Below the pieces are notes generated by a model that searched no databases, was not told the origin of the DNA, and saw only the letters and a list, made by a program, of their open reading frames with translations. The translations under genes were made by a program, and so were the position numbers. Below, piece after piece: positions 6,458 to 39,536 of a stretch of 61,945 bases of DNA; position 1 is the first letter of the stretch; every line of letters starts with the position of its first letter. This stretch comes from a virus (lineage: Duplodnaviria; Caudoviricetes): IMG/VR virus record IMGVR_UViG_3300046005_001016, positions 1-61,945 of that record; one strand, written 5' to 3'.

Positions 6458-7516
6458 TTACAGAGCAGTTACCGCGCACTCGAGACGGGCCATCCAGGCT
6501 TCGTTCAAGCGAACAGTTGCGAACCAGGTGCTGGCACCAACGTAACCAAACTGACCCAGTGGGTTGGCGTGGTTGACTTGGCTGGCCTTGAGCACGACGG
6601 GCTTCAGAGCATTCATGCCCTTCAGCGCGACCTGGCCCCAAGCGTCTTCACCGATGATGATGAACGGGTACACGTCAACCGAGGACCCGCCGACAGACAA
6701 CGAACCATTCAAGGTGCTCGAGCCGGACGCAGCGAAGCTGGCCAACAGAGGTGACTTGATGAAACGGTAGTCTTCGCAGGCACCGATTTCGTTGTCGTGC
6801 AATGGCTTGAACTGGCCGTACTCTTCCACCTTGGTGAAGTTGGGCAAGTTACGGATGTCGGACACCGCGTCAGTGTGAACAAACACGATGAACGCTGGCT
6901 GGACCGCGCGAGTGGCGAAGTTCACACCAGGAGCCAGGCGGCTGGAGATCCGCTTGGCGCGGTTCGATTCCAACGTACGGGCAGCACGGCGCAATGCGTT
7001 CAAGCTGATGGGGGTATTGACGGCCGCGCGGCTGGAGCCGTTGGCGTACAACACAGTGGAGCCGGCTTTCAGTACGCCGTAACGCACCAGTTCCAAGACT
7101 TCAGCCATGGTCTCGCCGGTCAACTTGACCATCTCACCAGGGATGTCGTCTTCGTACAACAGCTCGACCTTGGAGCTGTACTTAAACAGCAGACCGTACT
7201 GTTGCAACTGAACAGTCACGTCCTGGAAGGAGATGCTGTTTGCATTGGGCGTAGCGCCTTCACCGAGTACGAACGATGCCGCAGAAACCACCGGGGTTCC
7301 AACGTAACGCGCCGAGCTCTCAATGGTGGTTCCTGCTGCGCTGGCCGCGAACGGCAGCGTGCGACGGAACACCAGAGTGTCCGTAGCGTTTTGGGGCATC
7401 TCGCGCTGGGTGCCGAAGTCGCCCAGAACGGTGATGGGTTGTGCATGCGCGAGCATGTCTTGTGCGGCACGGATTAGATTTCGTGACGCGGATGAACTGT
7501 AGCCTTGGATTGTCAT
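6458..7516 (-). CDS. Major capsid protein, N4-gp56 family
   Basis: 352 aa; motifs FRR..P, L.EG.TP, LQQYG, EIG.....RF, NPLGQFG..G; strong RBS and codon bias. Confidence 0.9.
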   Translation of the reverse strand: MTIQGYSSSASRNLIRAAQDMLAHAQPITVLGDFGTQREMPQNATDTLVFRRTLPFAASAAGTTIESSARYVGTPVVSAASFVLGEGATPNANSISFQDVTVQLQQYGLLFKYSSKVELLYEDDIPGEMVKLTGETMAEVLELVRYGVLKAGSTVLYANGSSRAAVNTPISLNALRRAARTLESNRAKRISSRLAPGVNFATRAVQPAFIVFVHTDAVSDIRNLPNFTKVEEYGQFKPLHDNEIGACEDYRFIKSPLLASFAASGSSTLNGSLSVGGSSVDVYPFIIIGEDAWGQVALKGMNALKPVVLKASQVNHANPLGQFGYVGASTWFATVRLNEAWMARLECAVTAL

Positions 7517-14427: not shown

Positions 14428-16329
14428 TTAATATCCGACTTCTGGGTCCAGGCAACCGAAGTCCAGGACCGGGAGTTGCGCCCAGTCGTTCTTCGATGGC
14501 CATGGCAGATCCAGCGTTGGCTCTGCGATTCGCGCAAGTGCGTCTAACATGTCATCAAACGCACCAACAGGGAACACCGCCAGCTCCTCCTCGACGAAGG
14601 CTCTGACCAAATCTTTTGACTTGCCGGAGTAGTCTGTGTACATCAGCTCCCTTGGGAACCACACCCTCCCGCCCATGAAGTACGGCACCAGACGTCTGAT
14701 CCGGTCTTCCTTCTTGGTGGCGCCTCCGACCTCCAGCAACGGGAACCGGTAGTTGCGCCGGTTCATCTCGTTCTTCAGATTTTCAACGTCAGCCATGAGA
14801 CCGTAGCGTTCGACCCGCGTCTGCGCGGGCTTCCATTTACGGTGCAGCCGGAAGATGATCTCTGTTCTTTCTGCCATGTTGATCCGGTCTCGGACCATGT
14901 CCAACACGTACAGGTTCTCGTCCTCCCCCAACCCGATCACCCAGATCGCGGTGTAGTCAGACTTCTTGTCCTTGCGCCCGCCGGCGGGGTCAACCAGCAT
15001 GATCTTAGGCATGTTGGTGAAGTGGGCGTGGTCGTAGTACTGGACCCAGGACTTCTTGAGCTCGCCACCCCCGAGCGGCACTGGCCGCTGCTGGTAGAGG
15101 CTCGACCAAGTCCGGGGGTCCCGCTTGGCGTCGTCAACCATCTCCTGGGTAAACCACTCGGGCCACAGCCGCTCGCCAACTTTTCTGCCAAGTGGGTCAT
15201 TCTCATCTTCTGCCTCCATCGGCAGATTGATAACCTCCCACTTTTCAGGCTCCGTCTCCAGTAGCTTCCCCGCCAAGTCGTCCATGTGATAACGGGTGTT
15301 GATCAACACCACCCGCCCACCGGGTTTCAAACGCGGGGACAAGTCAAATTTGTACCAATCCCAAAGTCGCGTGCGGATCAGCTCACTGTCCGCGTCCTCT
15401 CGTGACCCGAAGGGGTCATCGATAATCATGCAGTTGTGGACCAGGATTCCGTTCGCGAAGAAGCACTGGGCCCCTTCTACCTGGATGTCATAGACTAGCG
15501 CCTGCCCCGTATGTACCGTTACCCTGGTTAAGCGTGAGCTTGAACCATCAACACATTCCGTTAGGCACCAGTTGCCAACCCTCATGTCCTTGGCCGCAAC
15601 CCAGTTACTAACTATCACGATGTCACCCGGACGCTCAGTGCTCACTTTGAACCGGTGGTTGGGAGTCGCGTTAACCACGCGCCCACACTCGAATCGCAAC
15701 TCTAGCCAGCTCCCCGCGACGCTCGTTGATAGCGCGAGGACGTGCCGAATGCCCAGTGGGGTGATTACCCTGTCGCCGACAACAACGTGTTCAATGGCTT
15801 TATGGCCGCCGACAACGGATACCGCGGTCCCGCCAAGAAGGCAATCCGCCCGGCGCCCCTGTACACGGGCGCCCGCGCCAACGGCGAAGTACTCGCCGCC
15901 TCCGCTGGTGGACCACTGCCCCGCTGCCGCGGAGTCGCCGGCCACCTGCAAGTCAAACACCTGCTGGTACGTCTTCTCCCCCACCATGTTCCTCACCCTG
16001 CGGCCCCACCGTTCAGCGAACGCCGTGGTGTGGCTGCCCGCGATGATGCTGGCGCCGGGGTGCTTACCCAGGAAGTACGCTGGGAAGAGCCCGCTTCCGA
16101 ACGTGGATTTTGCGCTACCGGGTGGAAGCGTCAACATCACCCTGTTACTCGTCCCTAGGGACACCTTGTCGAGCGCGTTGGCGATCAATATGTGGTGCGC
16201 CTGTGGCTGCTGATCCTCCGGCTGCATGTACTTGCAAAACCCAAGGAAGCTCTCCCTGGCCGCCTTGCGTGCAAGCAGGAACTTGGCCGCCTCCTGGGGC
16301 GTCAGGTCGCTGAGTTTCTTCGTAGCCAA
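14428..16329 (-). CDS. terL: Terminase large subunit containing an intein
   Basis: Walker A LPPGSAKS, GRRAD/IIDDP Walker B, TRYH..DL, LYQQRP, nuclease DPA...SDYTA and DDMLDA. Confidence 0.95.
   Translation of the reverse strand: MATKKLSDLTPQEAAKFLLARKAARESFLGFCKYMQPEDQQPQAHHILIANALDKVSLGTSNRVMLTLPPGSAKSTFGSGLFPAYFLGKHPGASIIAGSHTTAFAERWGRRVRNMVGEKTYQQVFDLQVAGDSAAAGQWSTSGGGEYFAVGAGARVQGRRADCLLGGTAVSVVGGHKAIEHVVVGDRVITPLGIRHVLALSTSVAGSWLELRFECGRVVNATPNHRFKVSTERPGDIVIVSNWVAAKDMRVGNWCLTECVDGSSSRLTRVTVHTGQALVYDIQVEGAQCFFANGILVHNCMIIDDPFGSREDADSELIRTRLWDWYKFDLSPRLKPGGRVVLINTRYHMDDLAGKLLETEPEKWEVINLPMEAEDENDPLGRKVGERLWPEWFTQEMVDDAKRDPRTWSSLYQQRPVPLGGGELKKSWVQYYDHAHFTNMPKIMLVDPAGGRKDKKSDYTAIWVIGLGEDENLYVLDMVRDRINMAERTEIIFRLHRKWKPAQTRVERYGLMADVENLKNEMNRRNYRFPLLEVGGATKKEDRIRRLVPYFMGGRVWFPRELMYTDYSGKSKDLVRAFVEEELAVFPVGAFDDMLDALARIAEPTLDLPWPSKNDWAQLPVLDFGCLDPEVGY
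15433..15843 (-). mobile_element. Mini-intein (137 aa, no endonuclease) in TerL
   Basis: Starts CLLGGT, block B ATPNHRF, block F VYDIQVEG, ends ILVHN followed by Cys; removal restores GRRAD-C-MIIDDP. Confidence 0.95.
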
Positions 16330-20602: not shown

Positions 20603-20917
20603 GTGATCAGCTACGCAACACTGTGCAACCACGTCCAGGGTTTCCCCTGGTCCAAGGCCCTGGCGGCCCTGGCGTCCAAGTCGCCAGCGTGGCCCGAGTA
20701 CCTGGAGCGGTACGAGGCACTGAGATCCGCGGCGCGTGAGCACAACGCCCTGGATATGCTGGCGCGGTTCGATGGCCTGGGGCTACTGCTCTACCCCGAC
20801 GACTATCGGGGGAAGAAACACCAGGTTCGTAAACCCAAAATGATTAGCCATGTGCATGATCCGCAGAGCCCATTGGGTAAGCGTTTGGGTGACATCATGC
20901 AAAAACGCGGCCGCTAG
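20603..20917 (+). CDS. Hypothetical protein (GTG start inferred)
   Basis: 3' part of ORF 20375..20917; GTGA overlap with a 30-aa hydrophobic ORF at 20514-20606. Confidence 0.5.
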   Translation: MISYATLCNHVQGFPWSKALAALASKSPAWPEYLERYEALRSAAREHNALDMLARFDGLGLLLYPDDYRGKKHQVRKPKMISHVHDPQSPLGKRLGDIMQKRGR

Positions 20918-20921
20918 GCCC

Positions 20922-20949
20922 TTGACAATTAGATTCCGGGTGTTATAGT
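20922..20949 (+). promoter_or_regulatory. Sigma70 promoter for the c4-rha unit
   Basis: TTGACA-16 nt-TATAGT with TGn extension. Confidence 0.8.
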
Positions 20950-21063
20950 CCGCTCACTTGAGGAAACTCAAGGGCGGGTTTGGCGACCCGGATATAACAG
21001 GCGCAGACAATAAGCGGCGCCGCAATGGTTAGCCGCTTTTTTATTTGCGTCAACACACCCCAG

Positions 21064-21146
21064 TTATGACGGGCTGTGTGGGACTTTCTCGCAAGGGAAA
21101 GTGCCGGTTCCTGTTACCGGTTCGCCAACCCACACAGTCTGTCACC
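21064..21146 (+). ncRNA. c4: C4-type antisense RNA
   Basis: Closing stem 21067-21082/21129-21144 and GCAA-loop hairpin; single-stranded CCTGTTA and TCGCCAA are complementary to TAACAGG (20995, 21183) and TTGGCGA (20980). Confidence 0.85.
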
Positions 21147-21197
21147 CCCAATGCGAATAAGGGCGACAGGTTTTTAACTTGTTAACAGGAGTCAATC

Positions 21198-21938
21198 ATG
21201 ACTACAGCTCTTTCCGCTTTCACCCCCGTGCTCGAAGTTATCAATTCACACGTTTACGCCACCAGCGGCCAAGTCGCTGAGCACTTCAACAAGCAGCATT
21301 ACAACGTACTGCGAGCCATCAAAAACTTGGAGTGCAGCCCGGGTTTTCATGCACTCAATTTTGAGGGCATACAAAACGACGTTGATTTAGGTCTCGGGCG
21401 CGTCCGCAAAGACCCCGCATACCGCATGACCCGCGACGGGTTTACCTTCCTGGCCATGGGCTTTACCGGTCGAAATGCTGCGCAGTGGAAAGAGTCTTAC
21501 ATCACCACGTTCAACAAAATGGAAGCGGCGCTGATCGCTGGATCAATCACCATCTCCCCCGCTCAAGCCCAAGAACTGCGCGAGCTGGTGCAGTTGGTCG
21601 CGGAGTCCGGTGTTCAAGGGCACGGCGAGACCTGGAATCGCTTACACCGTAAATTCCATGTGAACAGCTATCTCCAGCTGCCCGGCGGCATGTTCACTGC
21701 GGCCGTGGCTTACCTCAAAGGGAAAATGGACGGGCAAAGCCTCAAAGCGCTGGCCGTGAAGCACTTCCCTGAACTGGCGGCACGCGACACGATAGACGCC
21801 GGTCGTGAGGCCCTGGCCAGTGCCTACGTCGGGTTCACCAAGTTGGAGACGGCCATCTTTGCCGCCAAAGAACAGATCATGCTCGACCTCATGGGCATGA
21901 ATGACCTGATGCTTGACGCCCGGCTGTCTATCCGGTAA
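21198..21938 (+). CDS. rha: Rha-family regulator/antirepressor with C-terminal antirepressor-type domain
   Basis: TS.QVAE.F.K.H.NVLRAI..L; YRMTRDGFTFLAMGFTG..A..WK..YI..FN.ME. Confidence 0.9.
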   Translation: MTTALSAFTPVLEVINSHVYATSGQVAEHFNKQHYNVLRAIKNLECSPGFHALNFEGIQNDVDLGLGRVRKDPAYRMTRDGFTFLAMGFTGRNAAQWKESYITTFNKMEAALIAGSITISPAQAQELRELVQLVAESGVQGHGETWNRLHRKFHVNSYLQLPGGMFTAAVAYLKGKMDGQSLKALAVKHFPELAARDTIDAGREALASAYVGFTKLETAIFAAKEQIMLDLMGMNDLMLDARLSIR

Positions 21939-21959
21939 CACCCGCTAACCCCCAAAAAG

Positions 21960-21983
21960 AAACCCGCCTAGTGCGGGTTTTTT
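21960..21983 (+). terminator. Rho-independent terminator after rha
   Basis: AAACCCGC-ctagt-GCGGGTTT-TTT. Confidence 0.9.
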
Positions 21984-22051
21984 GTTGTCTGTCGTTTGCC
22001 AGTGTGCGGGGTACCCCGAGACCCCCGAAGTGAGGTTCTCGACGGCCTGGT

Positions 22052-22376
22052 GGGTCAAGTTGACCCCGTAGCTATCAGGGGTGGTCAAACTGACCACGCA
22101 TACCACTGAACTCAATTTTGAGTGGACCCACGCGGCGCCACTGTAGATTAATGGATCAAAGCTGAGCCTGTGCCGGTAACCTTCGGGCGGGTTGATTCGG
22201 CCACCACGGCACCCGCGCCACGCGTGCGCATCACCGGCTCAATTTTGAGCCCACCACACAAATCCCCCTGCAAATATATGTTGACACGCCCTGTGCGCGG
22301 TTGATAACCTTACTCCTCAAACTATCCAAAAGATAGTGCGGGCGGCCCGCCGGTAAGGTCGGCGCAAAACTGAGCT
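22052..22376. repeat. Non-coding array of 14-17 bp palindromes
   Basis: GGGTCAAGTTGACCC, GTGGTCAAACTGACCAC, ACTCAATTTTGAGT, GGATCAAAGCTGAGCC, GGCTCAATTTTGAGCC, GGCGCAAAACTGAGCT. Confidence 0.8.
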
Positions 22377-22534
22377 GACGATACACCCCCAAATGGCGCT
22401 CCTGCAGCGCGCGTCAGCAGGACCTCAGATCGATATACTCCCCCGGGGTATGCTGTTTTTTACCCCAAAAAGTCGGTTTTACAACCTCCAAGGGGGGCAG
22501 AGAATTTAATCCCTTTTGGGTTCCCAAATCCGAA

Positions 22535-23008
22535 TCAATCCTTACCGTGTAGTTTGTCGCTGATGGCGTGGTGCGCATGCCCCTGCAGCGCCCCCAGGTA
22601 GTCCGCCATGCGCTGCTCACGCTCTGTGAACCCAGCATCCCGGATGCCAGAACCCCGACAGGCCGGGCAGTTCTCCTCCGCGAGCACCGGAGACCCCTCG
22701 AGCACCGCATGACCCCGGCCATGGCAGACCTGGCAGACCCGGTCGATGCTGTGCGCGATCACTTTGGCGATGCTGGTGGCCTTGACGTCCCAACCTTGAC
22801 GGGCGGCAAAGACCTGCAGCCCCCGGATGACCGTGGGGAGCGAGCGCCGGTCCTGGAACGAGACCAACCGCCACATGGCGATGGCCACGTCCAGGTTCCG
22901 GTCTTGTGCTGCGGCGCCGGCTGCGCGGAGCAGGTCAACGTCCCCGATGTCTGTACCGTGGGCTTCGCCCAGGTCCGATGACTGCTCTGCACGGATCAAC
23001 TTTTCCAT
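22535..23008 (-). CDS. Antitermination Q-like / late regulator with zinc finger
   Basis: CQVCHGRG...CPACRGSG; last gene of the leftward middle operon. Confidence 0.6.
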   Translation of the reverse strand: MEKLIRAEQSSDLGEAHGTDIGDVDLLRAAGAAAQDRNLDVAIAMWRLVSFQDRRSLPTVIRGLQVFAARQGWDVKATSIAKVIAHSIDRVCQVCHGRGHAVLEGSPVLAEENCPACRGSGIRDAGFTEREQRMADYLGALQGHAHHAISDKLHGKD

Positions 23009-29121: not shown

Positions 29122-29781
29122 ATGACAACCACAAAACCCAAGACACCGCTGTCCGTCGGCCGTGGCAAAGACCGCCCCAAGGACCTGGACCCCGCGATCG
29201 CCGCTGTTCTGGACGACGCTGCGTTACGCACGGCCAATCGCAGGGAACGACTGCGACAAGAGGCGCTGGACGCGCCGCAGACGCCCAATACAAAGAGTCA
29301 ACTCTGGGAGCGCCTGCGTGCGGCCAGGGCTTACGCGCAGCGCACACAACGGGAGCTCGCTGCCGAGCTGGGTGTGACCCGCGGCGCCATCACCCTGTGG
29401 GAGAGCCCCGACGCCGGCGTGCGCACCATGCCACGCACTGAGCAGCTCCCGGGGGTCGCCGACTACCTGCGCGTGCCGCTCTCGTACCTGATGGACGACA
29501 ACGTCGAGGCACGCGAGGTGTACAACTACGCGATGCACGCCGAGCGTAGTCAGGCCAAGCCACTGCACTGGGAGATGTCCGCACCGGTGGCGCCAGTGAT
29601 TGACCCGATGGAGAAGATCATGGCCGAGCTGGCCCGCATGCGCCAGCCACAGGACAGCGGCATGTCCACGCAGGCCCGCGAGCTGGGCGCCGCGCTGGAC
29701 GCGGAGGCGGACACGACCCGGCGCGAGGCCCTGTTCAAAGAGGTCATGCAGTTCCTGGCGTTTCGCCGCTCGGTGGGTTAA
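29122..29781 (+). CDS. XRE-family HTH repressor (no S24 peptidase domain seen)
   Basis: ERLRAAR....TQRELAAELGVTRGAITLWES...P....L..VA..L.V..SYL. Confidence 0.8.
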   Translation: MTTTKPKTPLSVGRGKDRPKDLDPAIAAVLDDAALRTANRRERLRQEALDAPQTPNTKSQLWERLRAARAYAQRTQRELAAELGVTRGAITLWESPDAGVRTMPRTEQLPGVADYLRVPLSYLMDDNVEAREVYNYAMHAERSQAKPLHWEMSAPVAPVIDPMEKIMAELARMRQPQDSGMSTQARELGAALDAEADTTRREALFKEVMQFLAFRRSVG

Positions 29782-33242: not shown

Positions 33243-33503
33243 ATGGAAAACATTCGAGATTTAATCGCCGAGGCGGACACAGACATCCTGTTCTTGAGCG
33301 AGGTGGTGTACGACGCTGCGCTGATCGGAATCGCGCAGCACCCGCACGGCCAGTCCGCGCTGTACGACGGTGAGAAGGTGCTGGATATCTTGATGGCCGG
33401 CGGCATGGACCGCACCGACGCGATCGACTACTTCGAGTTCAACATCGCTGGCGCATTCGTCGGAGACGCAGGACCTTCTTACTTCTGGAAGGTGCAGCCA
33501 TGA
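33243..33503 (+). CDS. Hypothetical phage protein
   Basis: D.ALIG...YD..K......GM...DA.DYFEFN..GA.VG...P motif. Confidence 0.7.
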   Translation: MENIRDLIAEADTDILFLSEVVYDAALIGIAQHPHGQSALYDGEKVLDILMAGGMDRTDAIDYFEFNIAGAFVGDAGPSYFWKVQP

Positions 33504-34072
33504 CAAGCCGCGCATCAGAAATCTGGAAAGACGTCCCAGGGTACGAGGGCCAGTACCAGGCGAGCACGTTGGGGCGCGTCCGTAGCTTGGATCGGTACGT
33601 TGCGTTCCCTCCAGGGGGCGCCGCGCGTAGCAAAGGATTCACTGCTGCTGGCAGGGTTCTGAAGCAGTGGCCGGCCAACACGCAATACTTTCGGGTTCGT
33701 CTCTCCGCGGACAAATGGATGCACCTGGCGCACCGGCTTGTGGCCATTACGCACATACCGAATCCTGATATGAAACCACAGGTAAATCATATCAATGGGG
33801 ACAAGCAGGACAACAGGGTCGAGAATTTGGAGTGGGCCACCGCGTCCGAAAACATGCTGCATGCCAAGGCTTGTGGACTCATCAGTCATGACACGATCGG
33901 GCTGAAGTTACGCAAGCGGGTACTAGGCGCACCCGTTGATGGTATGGGTAGCAACAAGGAGTTCGCGTCTACTAAAGAAGCCGGGCAGAACGGGTTCAAT
34001 CAGGGCCACGTCGCGCAGTGCGCTGCGGGTAAAGAGCGCCAGCACAAGGGCTACTTCTGGAGCTATGTATGA
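33500..34072 (+). CDS. NUMOD4-HNH homing endonuclease
   Basis: EIWKDVPGYEGQYQAS.LGRVRS; HRLVA; QVNHINGDKQDNRVENLEW. Confidence 0.92.
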   Translation: MTSRASEIWKDVPGYEGQYQASTLGRVRSLDRYVAFPPGGAARSKGFTAAGRVLKQWPANTQYFRVRLSADKWMHLAHRLVAITHIPNPDMKPQVNHINGDKQDNRVENLEWATASENMLHAKACGLISHDTIGLKLRKRVLGAPVDGMGSNKEFASTKEAGQNGFNQGHVAQCAAGKERQHKGYFWSYV

Positions 34073-36063
34073 GCCGTGCATGCTCCGTCGACTTCGAGTG
34101 GCGCTCTGGTTCAGACATTAAGCGAGGGCTACCTCAATACTTTGCCGACGCTGAATCAGAGCCGTTGTGCATGGCGTACTGCTTTGATGACACACCTGGC
34201 GACGTGCGCATGTGGGGTGACACCCCGGACATGAACTGCCCGGGGGACCTAGCGGAGCATATTAAATCGGGGGGCCTGATACGGGCTTGGAATTACGCCT
34301 TCGAACATCAATGTTTCTCTTGGCTCACGGAGCACCACGGGTGGCCTATTGTGGGCATTACGCAGGGGTTGGACCCTATGGCCGAAGCCGCCGCGATGAA
34401 CCTGCCACAAGGGCTCGGCATGTGCGGCAACATCCTGGGCTTGGATGAGAGTCTGCTCAAGAAAGAACGTGGCGCGTATCTAATCCAGAAGCTGTGTATC
34501 CCGCAGAAGTCCCGCGCCAAAGTGCAGCCACCGCGCTGGAACAACGACCCCGCGCTGATGCAGGAGCTTTTTGATTATTGTAAGCAAGACGTCGTGGCAG
34601 AGATGGCCATCACCAAGAAGCTGCACCGGCTCTCTCCGTACGAGCAGGCGGCCTGGGTGAAGACCCAGGAGATCAACCTGCGCGGCGTACCGGTGGACAC
34701 CGCGGAGATCGCCAACATCATCAAGTGCACGGACGCAGAGCTCGAGCGCCTGAACAATGAGCTCAAGATCCTCACGGACTATCAAGTCACGGACGCCAAT
34801 AAGCGCCAAGCGGTGCAGGACTGGTGCAACGTCCGACTGCCGGAGGACCTCCAGCTCCCAGACCTGACGGGTGACACAGTAACTGCGTGGCTCAAACGGA
34901 CACTGCCGGCGCCAGTGCGCCGCGCGCTGGAGATCAGGGCCATGGGAAGCCAGACAAGTGTCGCCAAGCTCGACGCCATGCTGGCCACCGCGGCGCCTGA
35001 TGGGACTTTAAAGCAGATGTTGGCGTACCATGGCGCCAGCACTGGTCGGTTCGCAAGCCGCGGGGGTGTGAACTTGCAGAACATCGCGCGCCCCTCGTTG
35101 AAAGACGACGAGATCGCAATCGCGCACGACACGCTGGGCACCGGAGACTACGAGTTGGCCAGCATGGTGTGGGGAGAGCGCCTAATGGACGCGGGTGTGA
35201 GCACAGCCCGCGGGGTGCTGAAAGCAAAACCGGGGTACAGGTTTCTTGACGCGGATCTGGCATCGGTTGAGAACAGGGTTGCGTCTTGGATCAGCGGGCA
35301 GACTGACAAAGTCGAGATGTTCGCCAAAGGACTCGATGAATATAAGGTCTTTGCATCTGAGGGGTTGTATTTAATCCCATACGAATCTGTTACCAAAGAC
35401 CAGCGCCAGGTCAGTAAATCTGCTTGCTTAGGAGCAATGTTTGGACAAGGGGCCAAGGGCCTGATCGAGTACGCCGAAGGGTACGGGGTTACTCTGGACC
35501 TTAAGCGGAGCAAAGAGATCGTTGACCTTTACCGCGCCAAGTACCACATGGTTCAAGCCTGCTGGCACGCCTGCGGCCGCGCGTCCATCATGGCTGTCGA
35601 AGCGCCGGGTGTGTGGCAGGAAGTCAACGACAAGATCGCCCTCGCGGTGAACAAGTCCATGAGTTTCCTGGTGCTGCGCTTACCCAGCGGCCGGATCATT
35701 CGCTGGGCCATGCCCCGTGTCGAGGTGCTCGAGACTCCCTGGGGCGAGATGCGCGCAGTGGTGACCGTGGAGCAGACCGACTCGTTCACGCGCAAGTGGA
35801 AGCGTGACAAGCTCATCGGCTCCAGCATCTTCCAGTCAGCCGTGCAGGCCACGGCCCGCGACATCCAGGTGTTCGGACTCATGACCGCAGAAGCCGCCGG
35901 CTACAACACAGTGCTGCTCGTACACGACGAGATCCTGTGCCACAACAAAGTCGGGTGGGGCTCTCCGGAGGAGCTCGGCCGCCTGATATGTATCCAGCCC
36001 GAGTGGGCCCAAGACCTACCCCTCGCCTTCGAGGGGTGGGAGTCAGATCGTTTTCACAAATAG
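34069..36063 (+). CDS. polA: DNA polymerase family A with 3'-5' exonuclease
   Basis: DFE, N..FE, YCKQDV; ASTGRF, NLQN, motif A DLASVENRV, motif B RQVSK...LG, motif C VHDE. Confidence 0.93.
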   Translation: MSRACSVDFEWRSGSDIKRGLPQYFADAESEPLCMAYCFDDTPGDVRMWGDTPDMNCPGDLAEHIKSGGLIRAWNYAFEHQCFSWLTEHHGWPIVGITQGLDPMAEAAAMNLPQGLGMCGNILGLDESLLKKERGAYLIQKLCIPQKSRAKVQPPRWNNDPALMQELFDYCKQDVVAEMAITKKLHRLSPYEQAAWVKTQEINLRGVPVDTAEIANIIKCTDAELERLNNELKILTDYQVTDANKRQAVQDWCNVRLPEDLQLPDLTGDTVTAWLKRTLPAPVRRALEIRAMGSQTSVAKLDAMLATAAPDGTLKQMLAYHGASTGRFASRGGVNLQNIARPSLKDDEIAIAHDTLGTGDYELASMVWGERLMDAGVSTARGVLKAKPGYRFLDADLASVENRVASWISGQTDKVEMFAKGLDEYKVFASEGLYLIPYESVTKDQRQVSKSACLGAMFGQGAKGLIEYAEGYGVTLDLKRSKEIVDLYRAKYHMVQACWHACGRASIMAVEAPGVWQEVNDKIALAVNKSMSFLVLRLPSGRIIRWAMPRVEVLETPWGEMRAVVTVEQTDSFTRKWKRDKLIGSSIFQSAVQATARDIQVFGLMTAEAAGYNTVLLVHDEILCHNKVGWGSPEELGRLICIQPEWAQDLPLAFEGWESDRFHK

Positions 36064-38789: not shown

Positions 38790-39536
38790 ATGAAAAGACT
38801 GATCTGCTGGTACTCCTGCGGAGCTGCCAGTGCAGTGGCTACAAAGCTCGCAATCGCAAAGTACAAAGACACTCACGACATCGTAATTGCGAGATGCATT
38901 GTGAAAGAAGAACACCCAGACAATGACCGCTTCGCTGCTGACTGCGAAAAATGGTTCGATCTACCGATCACAAACCTAATGAATGAGGAATTTGATGGGT
39001 CAATTTACAACGTCATAACAAAGCGCAAATACATCAGCGGGATCAGCGGCGCGCCCTGCACAATGCTACTGAAAAAGGAAGTGCGCTTGAAGTTTCAGCG
39101 GCCAGATGATGCTCATGTGTTTGGGTACTGCGCGGAAGAACAAGACCGCTACGACAGCTTTATTGATGCCAACAATATTGACTGCCTAGTACCGCTTATT
39201 GACGCAAAACTGACCCATGCAAACTGCCTTGCGCTGCTGCAAAACGCAGGGATCGAACTGCCAGAAATGTACAAGCTTGGGTATCAGCATAACAACTGTA
39301 TCGGGTGCGTAAAGGCTACTGGCGCAGGGTACTGGAACAAGATCAAGCATGACTTTCCAGCGCGGTTTTGGATGATGGCTGGTGCCAGTCGCGCACTGGG
39401 CGTGAGGATGACTCGGATCGGATCGGATCGGATTTTCCTCGATGAATTGCCAACGGGTATTGGTCGCTATCAGGACGAACCGGAAATCCAGTGCGGGATA
39501 TTTTGCGAGATGGCGCAGCAGGAGATAGAGGCATGA
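38790..39536 (+). CDS. PP-loop / PAPS-reductase-like enzyme
   Basis: WYSCGAASAVA, EHPDN.RF, APCT..LKK, LP.MY.LGY.HNNCIGCVK, CG.FC. Confidence 0.75.
   Translation: MKRLICWYSCGAASAVATKLAIAKYKDTHDIVIARCIVKEEHPDNDRFAADCEKWFDLPITNLMNEEFDGSIYNVITKRKYISGISGAPCTMLLKKEVRLKFQRPDDAHVFGYCAEEQDRYDSFIDANNIDCLVPLIDAKLTHANCLALLQNAGIELPEMYKLGYQHNNCIGCVKATGAGYWNKIKHDFPARFWMMAGASRALGVRMTRIGSDRIFLDELPTGIGRYQDEPEIQCGIFCEMAQQEIEA

Follow-up and report, generated by a model that had tools for sequence, protein, structure and literature searches.

An operator-like palindrome inside phage rha genes, probably read by the Rha domain, downstream of a known type of antisense RNA switch

There are precedents for a DNA-binding protein that has its target within its own gene. 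The O protein of bacteriophage lambda is a winged-helix protein that binds dyad-symmetric sites (the iterons of the replication origin) within gene O, and lambdoid phages differ in their matched specificities of O protein and site. Similarly, a 16-bp parS palindrome is located inside the gene of its own binding protein, ParB (Spo0J), and more copies are found elsewhere. The rha locus described in this study differs from both systems. Lambda carries four iterons together with an AT-rich region and starts replication there, whereas rha carries one site inside the gene, shows no sign of an origin, and its product belongs to another Pfam family; parS is conserved across species, whereas the sites of rha genes diversify with the protein, and no ParB domain is present in this case.

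A further comparison is offered by the TIGR-Tas systems. As outlined in a preprint (bioRxiv 10.64898/2026.09.09.750476), these resemble the present case in comprising phage-borne arrays with variable stems, some of which lie in-frame within the gene of the effector; their units, however, are guide RNAs, each with two spacers and box C/D motifs, to which Nop-domain proteins bind, whereas the elements described here are DNA palindromes of 14-16 bp. A TIGR-Tas array was considered for our locus and rejected, as the whole record contains no match to the Nop domain (PF01798) and the units differ.

The region upstream of rha also has a close counterpart. The isrK-orf45-anrP switch of Gifsy-1 has been worked out by experiment and, judging from the accessible part of its description (PMC4825925), the P1/P7 immI and Gifsy-1 switches resemble our locus, in which an RNA of the C4 type, preceded by a promoter and a putative leader RNA, is followed by an antirepressor-like gene with a ribosome-binding site predicted to pair with the RNA. 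This likeness accounts for only the upstream 300 bp of the rha locus, and neither that part of the paper nor the Rfam families mention an operator within the gene downstream of the IsrK/C4 switch.

Rha (PF09669) is among the commonest regulatory domains of temperate phages and is poorly understood; a tblastn search with the single Rha domain studied here matched 624 of 50,697 phage records. The open literature, in the portions accessible to us, treats Rha as a putative DNA-binding or antirepressor-like domain and gives no target, and our searches of open-access papers and bioRxiv found no mention of a DNA sequence bound by Rha, of an operator within its gene or of a rule for its recognition. 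The RNA gate itself is known, and a protein-binding site within the gene of the protein has counterparts in lambda O/ori and ParB/parS.

The window analysed is a full virus record of 61,945 bp. The features of its rha region are as follows.

20922-20949, plus strand: sigma-70-like promoter (11/12 consensus), heading the RNA switch
20943-21042, plus strand: putative IsrK / c4-a1b1-like leader RNA with a terminator-like hairpin (both matches under the Rfam gathering scores)
21062-21149, plus strand: C4 antisense RNA (RF01695, 55.5 bits, gathering score 45)
21183-21197, plus strand: region of the rha ribosome-binding site; 8/9 bases complementary to a loop of C4, as read by eye
21198-21938, plus strand: rha gene, 246 aa (Rha domain at residues 22-109, then a helical C-terminal part)
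21300-21314, plus strand: codons of Y35 and N36 (21300-21305) and R39 (21312-21314), in the predicted recognition helix 34-42
21349-21370, plus strand: putative in-gene operator with a 14-bp core (21353-21366); left half-site ACTCAA cognate, right half-site mismatched at position 7
21957-21983, no strand assigned: bidirectional terminator-like hairpin 3' of rha
22052-22066 and 22081-22097, no strand assigned: two further short palindromes of other spacing, fitting the recognition rule poorly
22110-22123, no strand assigned: putative free-standing operator, ACTCAATTTTGAGT, perfectly symmetric and cognate
22153-22168, no strand assigned: doubtful degenerate copy, fitting the recognition rule poorly
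22236-22251, no strand assigned: free-standing Rha-type palindrome, GGCTCAATTTTGAGCC; positions 4 and 5 cognate, position 7 = G (Lys/Arg-35 type)
22361-22376, no strand assigned: doubtful degenerate copy in reverse orientation, likewise a poor fit to the recognition rule (23/26 bases as in the in-gene palindrome of locus L018)

The upstream part is, most probably, an ordinary IsrK/C4 antisense RNA gate of the P1 immI and Gifsy-1 type, placed in front of a Rha-family gene. The putative leader RNA scores 35.7 bits with isrK (RF01394; gathering score 50) and 23.6 bits with c4-a1b1 (RF03163; gathering score 46.7), and is complementary to C4 (87%). The predicted duplex of C4 with the rha leader and ribosome-binding region reaches -37.9, compared with -28.2 +/- 3.9 for shuffled targets. 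Among 20 homologous rha loci that we scanned, nine carry C4 and two carry sRNA-Xcc1 directly upstream (two also have IsrK), while nine lack any C4-like match. The original prediction had correctly placed a C4 RNA upstream of rha, since the match at 21062-21149 exceeds its gathering score. It went too far in regarding C4, rha and the downstream array as a strong candidate for an undescribed system: C4 or a C4-like RNA is present in 11 of the 20 loci, and the IsrK/C4-antirepressor switch is already published (PMC4825925).

Several further features of this upstream region were noted. A 46-codon ORF (21045-21185) overlaps C4 and stops 13 nt before the rha start, recalling orf45 of Gifsy-1, which is required there for translational coupling. 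In two loci sRNA-Xcc1 (RF02221) takes the place of C4 (L004, 2845-2928, 75.6 bits; L008, 2857-2943, 68.7 bits), which suggests that the C4 and sRNA-Xcc1 Rfam families may be variants of one switch. A 9,998-bp contig from a lake-water run matches positions 20900-21042 of the window with 14 differences, continues with 474 other letters and rejoins at 21545; given this divergence across 21043-21544, a related phage has another C4 and another Rha N-domain, operator included, exchanged as one cassette.

The rha product matches PF09669 (Phage_pRha) over residues 22-109 with 89.2 bits (gathering score 29.9). Within its ORF, the 22-mer at 21349-21370 encodes HALNFEGI and contains CTCAATTTTGAG, an inverted repeat around a 2-bp TT centre (CTCAA-TT-TTGAG) that is not a perfect palindrome. 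Exact copies of CTCAATTTTGAG start at 21354 (in rha), 22111 and 22238, all on the plus strand and nowhere else in the 61,945 bp; the downstream copies thus lie 757 and 884 bp past the in-gene one. Three exact matches compare with a mean of 0.01 in 100 shuffles, none of which contained three or more, and the claim that a core within rha recurs exactly at these two downstream positions was borne out by direct reading of the sequence. Both downstream copies are located beyond the terminator-like hairpin, within a 600-bp gap separating convergent genes; the gene that follows (22535-23008) runs on the minus strand. Neither 21330-21390 nor 22095-22265 matched an Rfam family, even at E values up to 5. 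The degenerate copies claimed at 22153 and 22361 do exist, but taken alone they do not exceed chance: allowing two mismatches gives 7 matches against 3.55 expected, and 8 of 100 shuffles reach 7.

We considered whether the intergenic copies are relics of rha genes, and rejected this, as their likeness to 161 rha segments extends to at most 17 nt, the exception being the 23/26 match at 22358-22383. A packaging site was likewise rejected for the array, the large terminase gene being far off (14428-16329). The downstream array showed no variation across matching DNA contigs, and no close relatives in which its conservation could be assessed were found via the Rha protein, the neighbouring 157-aa protein or the helicase (best identity 47%); 80 helicase loci (855 kb) contained neither an AATTTT-centred palindrome nor a Rha match. 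A repressor-like gene is present at 29122-29781. Elsewhere in the window (33500-36063 and 38790-39536), an HNH endonuclease gene lies directly 5' of a DNA polymerase gene and a PAPS-reductase-like gene is found farther along; this phage also encodes a Gp2.5-like single-strand-binding protein and a primase-helicase.

The palindrome within rha is no peculiarity of this phage. GTDB genomes, IMG/VR and metagenomes together supplied 162 loci that encode a Rha N-domain, and in each we mapped the codon boundary corresponding to N54|F55. In nearly all of them an inverted repeat centred on AATTTT is present at this boundary (118 distinct 36-mers from the 162 loci). Depending on the position, 90 to 118 of these 118 sequences show Watson-Crick pairing at arm positions 2-7 and 10-12; at positions 8-9 about 45% do so. 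Of 11 possible pairs the boundary shows 9.22, whereas other offsets within these genes give 2.76 +/- 0.53 and never more than 4.69. The arm covariation score of the 118-row alignment is 0.507, against 0.151 +/- 0.010 after shuffling (none of 500 shuffles reaches it) and at most 0.134 with slid partners. Codon choice at the centre is nearly fixed: Asn is encoded by AAT in 110/114 and Phe by TTT in 118/118, compared with 34% and 36% elsewhere in those genes. Since the arms of the repeat stay complementary, the flanking residues come in reverse-complement codon pairs, including R/A, L/E, L/Q, P/G and H/V. According to the structural model, the palindrome encodes residues ~51-58, at the helix/wing junction.

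Nine extra phages were also inspected. Six of them carry the element (Paenibacillus Dante, Lactobacillus JNU_P4, Bacillus BMBtp2, P22, ICP1 and a Campylobacter phage), and the remaining three lack it (a Streptococcus satellite, a Staphylococcus phage and Bacillus PBC4). The hosts of element-bearing phages range from Proteobacteria to Firmicutes and Bacteroidota, and Rha is its only constant partner. In one record (G008) the centre is flipped (AAAATT) and different residues are encoded; the element is therefore independent of the strand.

Does the protein vary together with its palindrome? We compared the arm bases of 115 homologues, by mutual information, with every protein column not encoded by the palindrome. 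The information common to arm position 5 and residue 36 amounts to 1.39 of 1.61 bits (next-highest non-palindrome column, 0.43), and that common to position 7 and residue 35 to 1.18 of 1.41 bits (next-highest, 0.56). The pairings are listed below.

Position 4 = C: Arg/Lys39 (94/98)
Position 4 = G: Gln39 (12/14)
Position 5 = T: Asn36 (40/40)
Position 5 = G: Asp36 (41/56; in the other 15/56 residue 36 is not Asp)
Position 5 = C: His/Lys/Arg36 (12/13)
Position 7 = G: Lys/Arg35 (57/60)
Position 7 = C: Asp35 (34/39)

Asn-A, Asp-C and Lys/Arg/His-G are textbook preferences between amino acids and bases, and they agree with the pairings observed. The rules for residues 35 and 36 combine freely, as independent contacts would (K-N, K-D, D-N, D-D, D-H, A-D, Y-N and others). 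At the nucleotide level, no consistent rule links codons 35, 36 and 39 to the arms. The trees of this short domain, built without the trait columns, are poorly resolved and supplied only 5 to 11 supported independent pairs; on them, each trait changes 12 to 32 times. No discordance was seen for the rules on Asn, Asp, basic residues and Lys/Arg among 9, 11, 7 and 8 independent pairs, respectively (median p 0.0039-0.031), and again none when more columns were dropped (6 to 8 pairs, p 0.016 to 0.0625); cross-controls gave p values of 0.5 to 1. The position 7 rules linking C to Asp and A to Ala/Tyr/Phe/His fell short of significance, with a rare discordant pairing in some draws. Out of sample, positions 4, 5 and 7 are as predicted in Bacillus BMBtp2, Lactobacillus JNU_P4 and ICP1; the rule holds at positions 4 and 5 in the G008 record, one half-site fits it in P22 and Paenibacillus Dante, and the palindrome of the Campylobacter phage does not fit.

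The original prediction proposed that the Rha domain binds a site encoded in its own gene, so that site and protein change together. The covariation across 115 homologues, the phylogeny-aware tests and the out-of-sample phages all lend this computational support. It had also suggested that the codons within the palindrome set the specificity, which our data do not support, as the covarying residues 35, 36 and 39 sit 15-19 codons upstream, in the recognition helix. A separate observation concerns arm positions 10-12, which in the same 115 homologues (residues 65-74 compared) share information with the wing: 1.02 bits with residue 68 and 0.80 bits with residue 72, of 1.58. These wing residues lie outside the stretch encoded by the palindrome, and the link possibly reflects a second contact or the effect of wing indels.

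The AlphaFold model of Rha (mean pLDDT 78.6) has a helix at 34-42 followed by a beta-hairpin at 55-78, and places residues 35, 36 and 39 on this helix, just before the wing. A Foldseek search against the PDB returned only weak matches to winged-helix regulators (best E 0.04, none significant), and no solved relative was found by sequence. The homodimer model obtained a score of 0.64, compared with 0.07 for the best of three controls; this mark was attained by 20/30 proteins solved as pairs and by 1/23 solved as single chains. Contact agreement between the homodimer runs was at least 38% and the partner pLDDT at least 66. The modelled interface consists of residues 44-50 and 80-112 and leaves the recognition helix free.

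The palindrome, the covariation of its arms, the residue-base rule and a supported homodimer model are thus computed results, and their most likely explanation is that Rha binds the palindrome as a dimer, with site and protein co-evolving. We regard as probable a reading in which a family-wide operator read by Rha is combined with a standard antisense-gated cassette, the autolimiting step described below included. The cassette would run from the promoter through the IsrK/a1b1-like leader and the C4 RNA, able to mask the ribosome-binding site of rha, to rha itself. The in-gene palindrome would be the local copy of a double-stranded DNA operator read by Rha as a symmetric dimer, in which arm positions 4, 5 and 7 would be read by residues 39, 36 and 35, respectively, around the invariant AATTTT centre. 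The arms would remain complementary because one protein must fit both half-sites, and complementary arms would in turn force their codons, at a helix/wing junction that tolerates change, into reverse-complement pairs. We infer that Rha bound within its own gene may limit Rha synthesis, either as a transcription roadblock or by looping to the two downstream sites; the in-gene site may also keep protein and site linked, so that they travel as one cassette.

If this reading is correct, the target site of Rha could be found in any genome at one codon boundary, and the residue-to-base rule would predict the specificity of each member of the family. Such phages would then provide a natural, diversified set of orthogonal protein-operator pairs. 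Moreover, an odd stretch of the Rha protein would be explained as one in which the symmetry of the DNA, rather than the function of the protein, sets the sequence.

With Y35, N36 and R39, the rule predicts the half-site ACTCAA for this phage. The in-gene site matches it perfectly in its left half only, that at 22110-22123 does so in both halves, and that at 22236-22251 is off at position 7 only. The ACTCAA half-site is rare (3/145 loci), and an exact cognate 14-mer is found near rha in 2 of 145 loci, namely this window and L066. On account of this rarity, a chance origin of the downstream site is very unlikely, and it represents an unusual extra in this phage. Across the 145 loci, cognate 14-mers with 0, 1 and 2 mismatches occur in 2, 5 and 15 loci, against control means of 2.0, 3.6 and 16.8, and extra copies of the own type are present within ~3 kb in 9/145 loci, against 8-16 in controls. 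The expectation that the in-gene variant predicts the palindromes found elsewhere does not, therefore, hold as a general rule.

Rha-type palindromes are also found outside the coding sequence of the Rha domain. There, AAAATT 6-mers form palindrome centres in 15/783 cases in rha loci, compared with 91/15,857 for other A/T 6-mers, a mild enrichment in which 7 of the 15 come from Endozoicomonas. A scan with the 16-mer of the window gave 82 matches in 80 fetched loci, 62 of them within Rha genes. The other matches include arrays of several different AATTTT-centred palindromes, with mixed orientation of the centre within arrays and, in one array, several different arm types. The arrays of one phage lineage lie between the HNH and small-terminase genes, and those of another adjoin a serine integrase gene. 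In the former lineage the sole complete record (61.9 kb) lacks a Rha domain; a PF09669 match is absent from 12 of the 15 records with free-standing palindromes, including three of the five that are at least 90% complete.

A bolder interpretation takes Rha as a family of DNA binders with a three-residue code and private in-gene operators, and the arrays of Rha-less phages, ahead of packaging genes, as multi-specificity pads that sense or soak up the Rha of co-resident phages; we judge it unlikely. A different view, which we hold to be improbable, is that the inverted repeat acts as an RNA or single-stranded DNA hairpin in the rha message (a signal for processing, pausing or decay), with no binding by Rha. 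The covariation of the arms would suit such a hairpin, which RNAalifold draws with an AUUU loop, as would the two G-U pairs retained on the sense strand by the P22 version and the existence elsewhere of arrays with differing stems and the same centre. What a hairpin leaves unexplained is why the arm bases should follow residues 35, 36 and 39, whose codons lie 45-60 nt upstream, in chemically sensible pairings. In addition, the folding of the window's hairpins is weak (z -1.3 to -2.3), and the orientation of the centre is reversed in G008 and mixed within arrays. G-U mismatches are not favoured over A-C ones, a comparison confounded by codon constraints. That the repeated 12-mer represents target sites of the C4 antisense RNA is the least credible of the alternatives and can hardly be maintained: although C4 lies just upstream, its duplex with the in-gene site (-28.1, against -30.8 +/- 4.8 for shuffled sequences) and those with the downstream sites (z about -1.2 to -1.5) are at chance level, and the palindrome is found also in loci devoid of C4, such as the nine of 20 mentioned above.

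Marginally less probable than the hairpin is the idea that another protein, either a host factor or a phage DNA-binder such as the small terminase, reads the palindromes and that Rha merely carries one. The position of the arrays in the two lineages and the lack of a Rha domain in three of the five nearly complete records would be in keeping with such a reader. Against it, the hosts span several phyla with Rha as the sole constant partner, and the residue-base rule points to the Rha helix. In comparison with the consensus sites of Fis and IHF, the Rha palindrome is 1 bp shorter and its spacing does not fit. Finally, the long palindromes might be functionless, being a by-product of conserved residues (EF..NF..EY, with self-complementary codons) and of template-switch mutations that perfect quasi-palindromes. 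The GAATTC and AATTTT codons of the conserved residues are indeed partly self-complementary, positions 8-9, at which protein constraint opposes pairing, remain mismatched, and truncated rha copies break at the palindrome. Such an origin leaves unexplained the near-fixed synonymous T at the unpaired centre, the link to the recognition helix and the free-standing copies in non-coding DNA, and we consider it very improbable.

Some minor observations were made in the course of the comparison. Up to seven different AATTTT-centred palindromes occupy the gap between the HNH and small-terminase genes (L186, 6150-6470; L211, 7400-7760; L172, ~2800-2900; L277, ~6850-6960). In L079 (~990-1200), a second copy of rha, truncated at its 5' end, opens precisely with a perfect 28-bp form of the palindrome, which lies ~470 bp upstream from the site in the intact gene. 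In L062 (~1570-1760, upstream of rha), the left half-site and the centre occur as three direct repeats, ~100 bp apart, each of them followed by sequence resembling the region 3' of the in-gene site; a similar fragment is present in L217. A type II hammerhead ribozyme (61 bits, gathering score 37) was identified at positions 179-240 of L028, ~2.8 kb upstream of the rha gene of a Desulfovibrio prophage.
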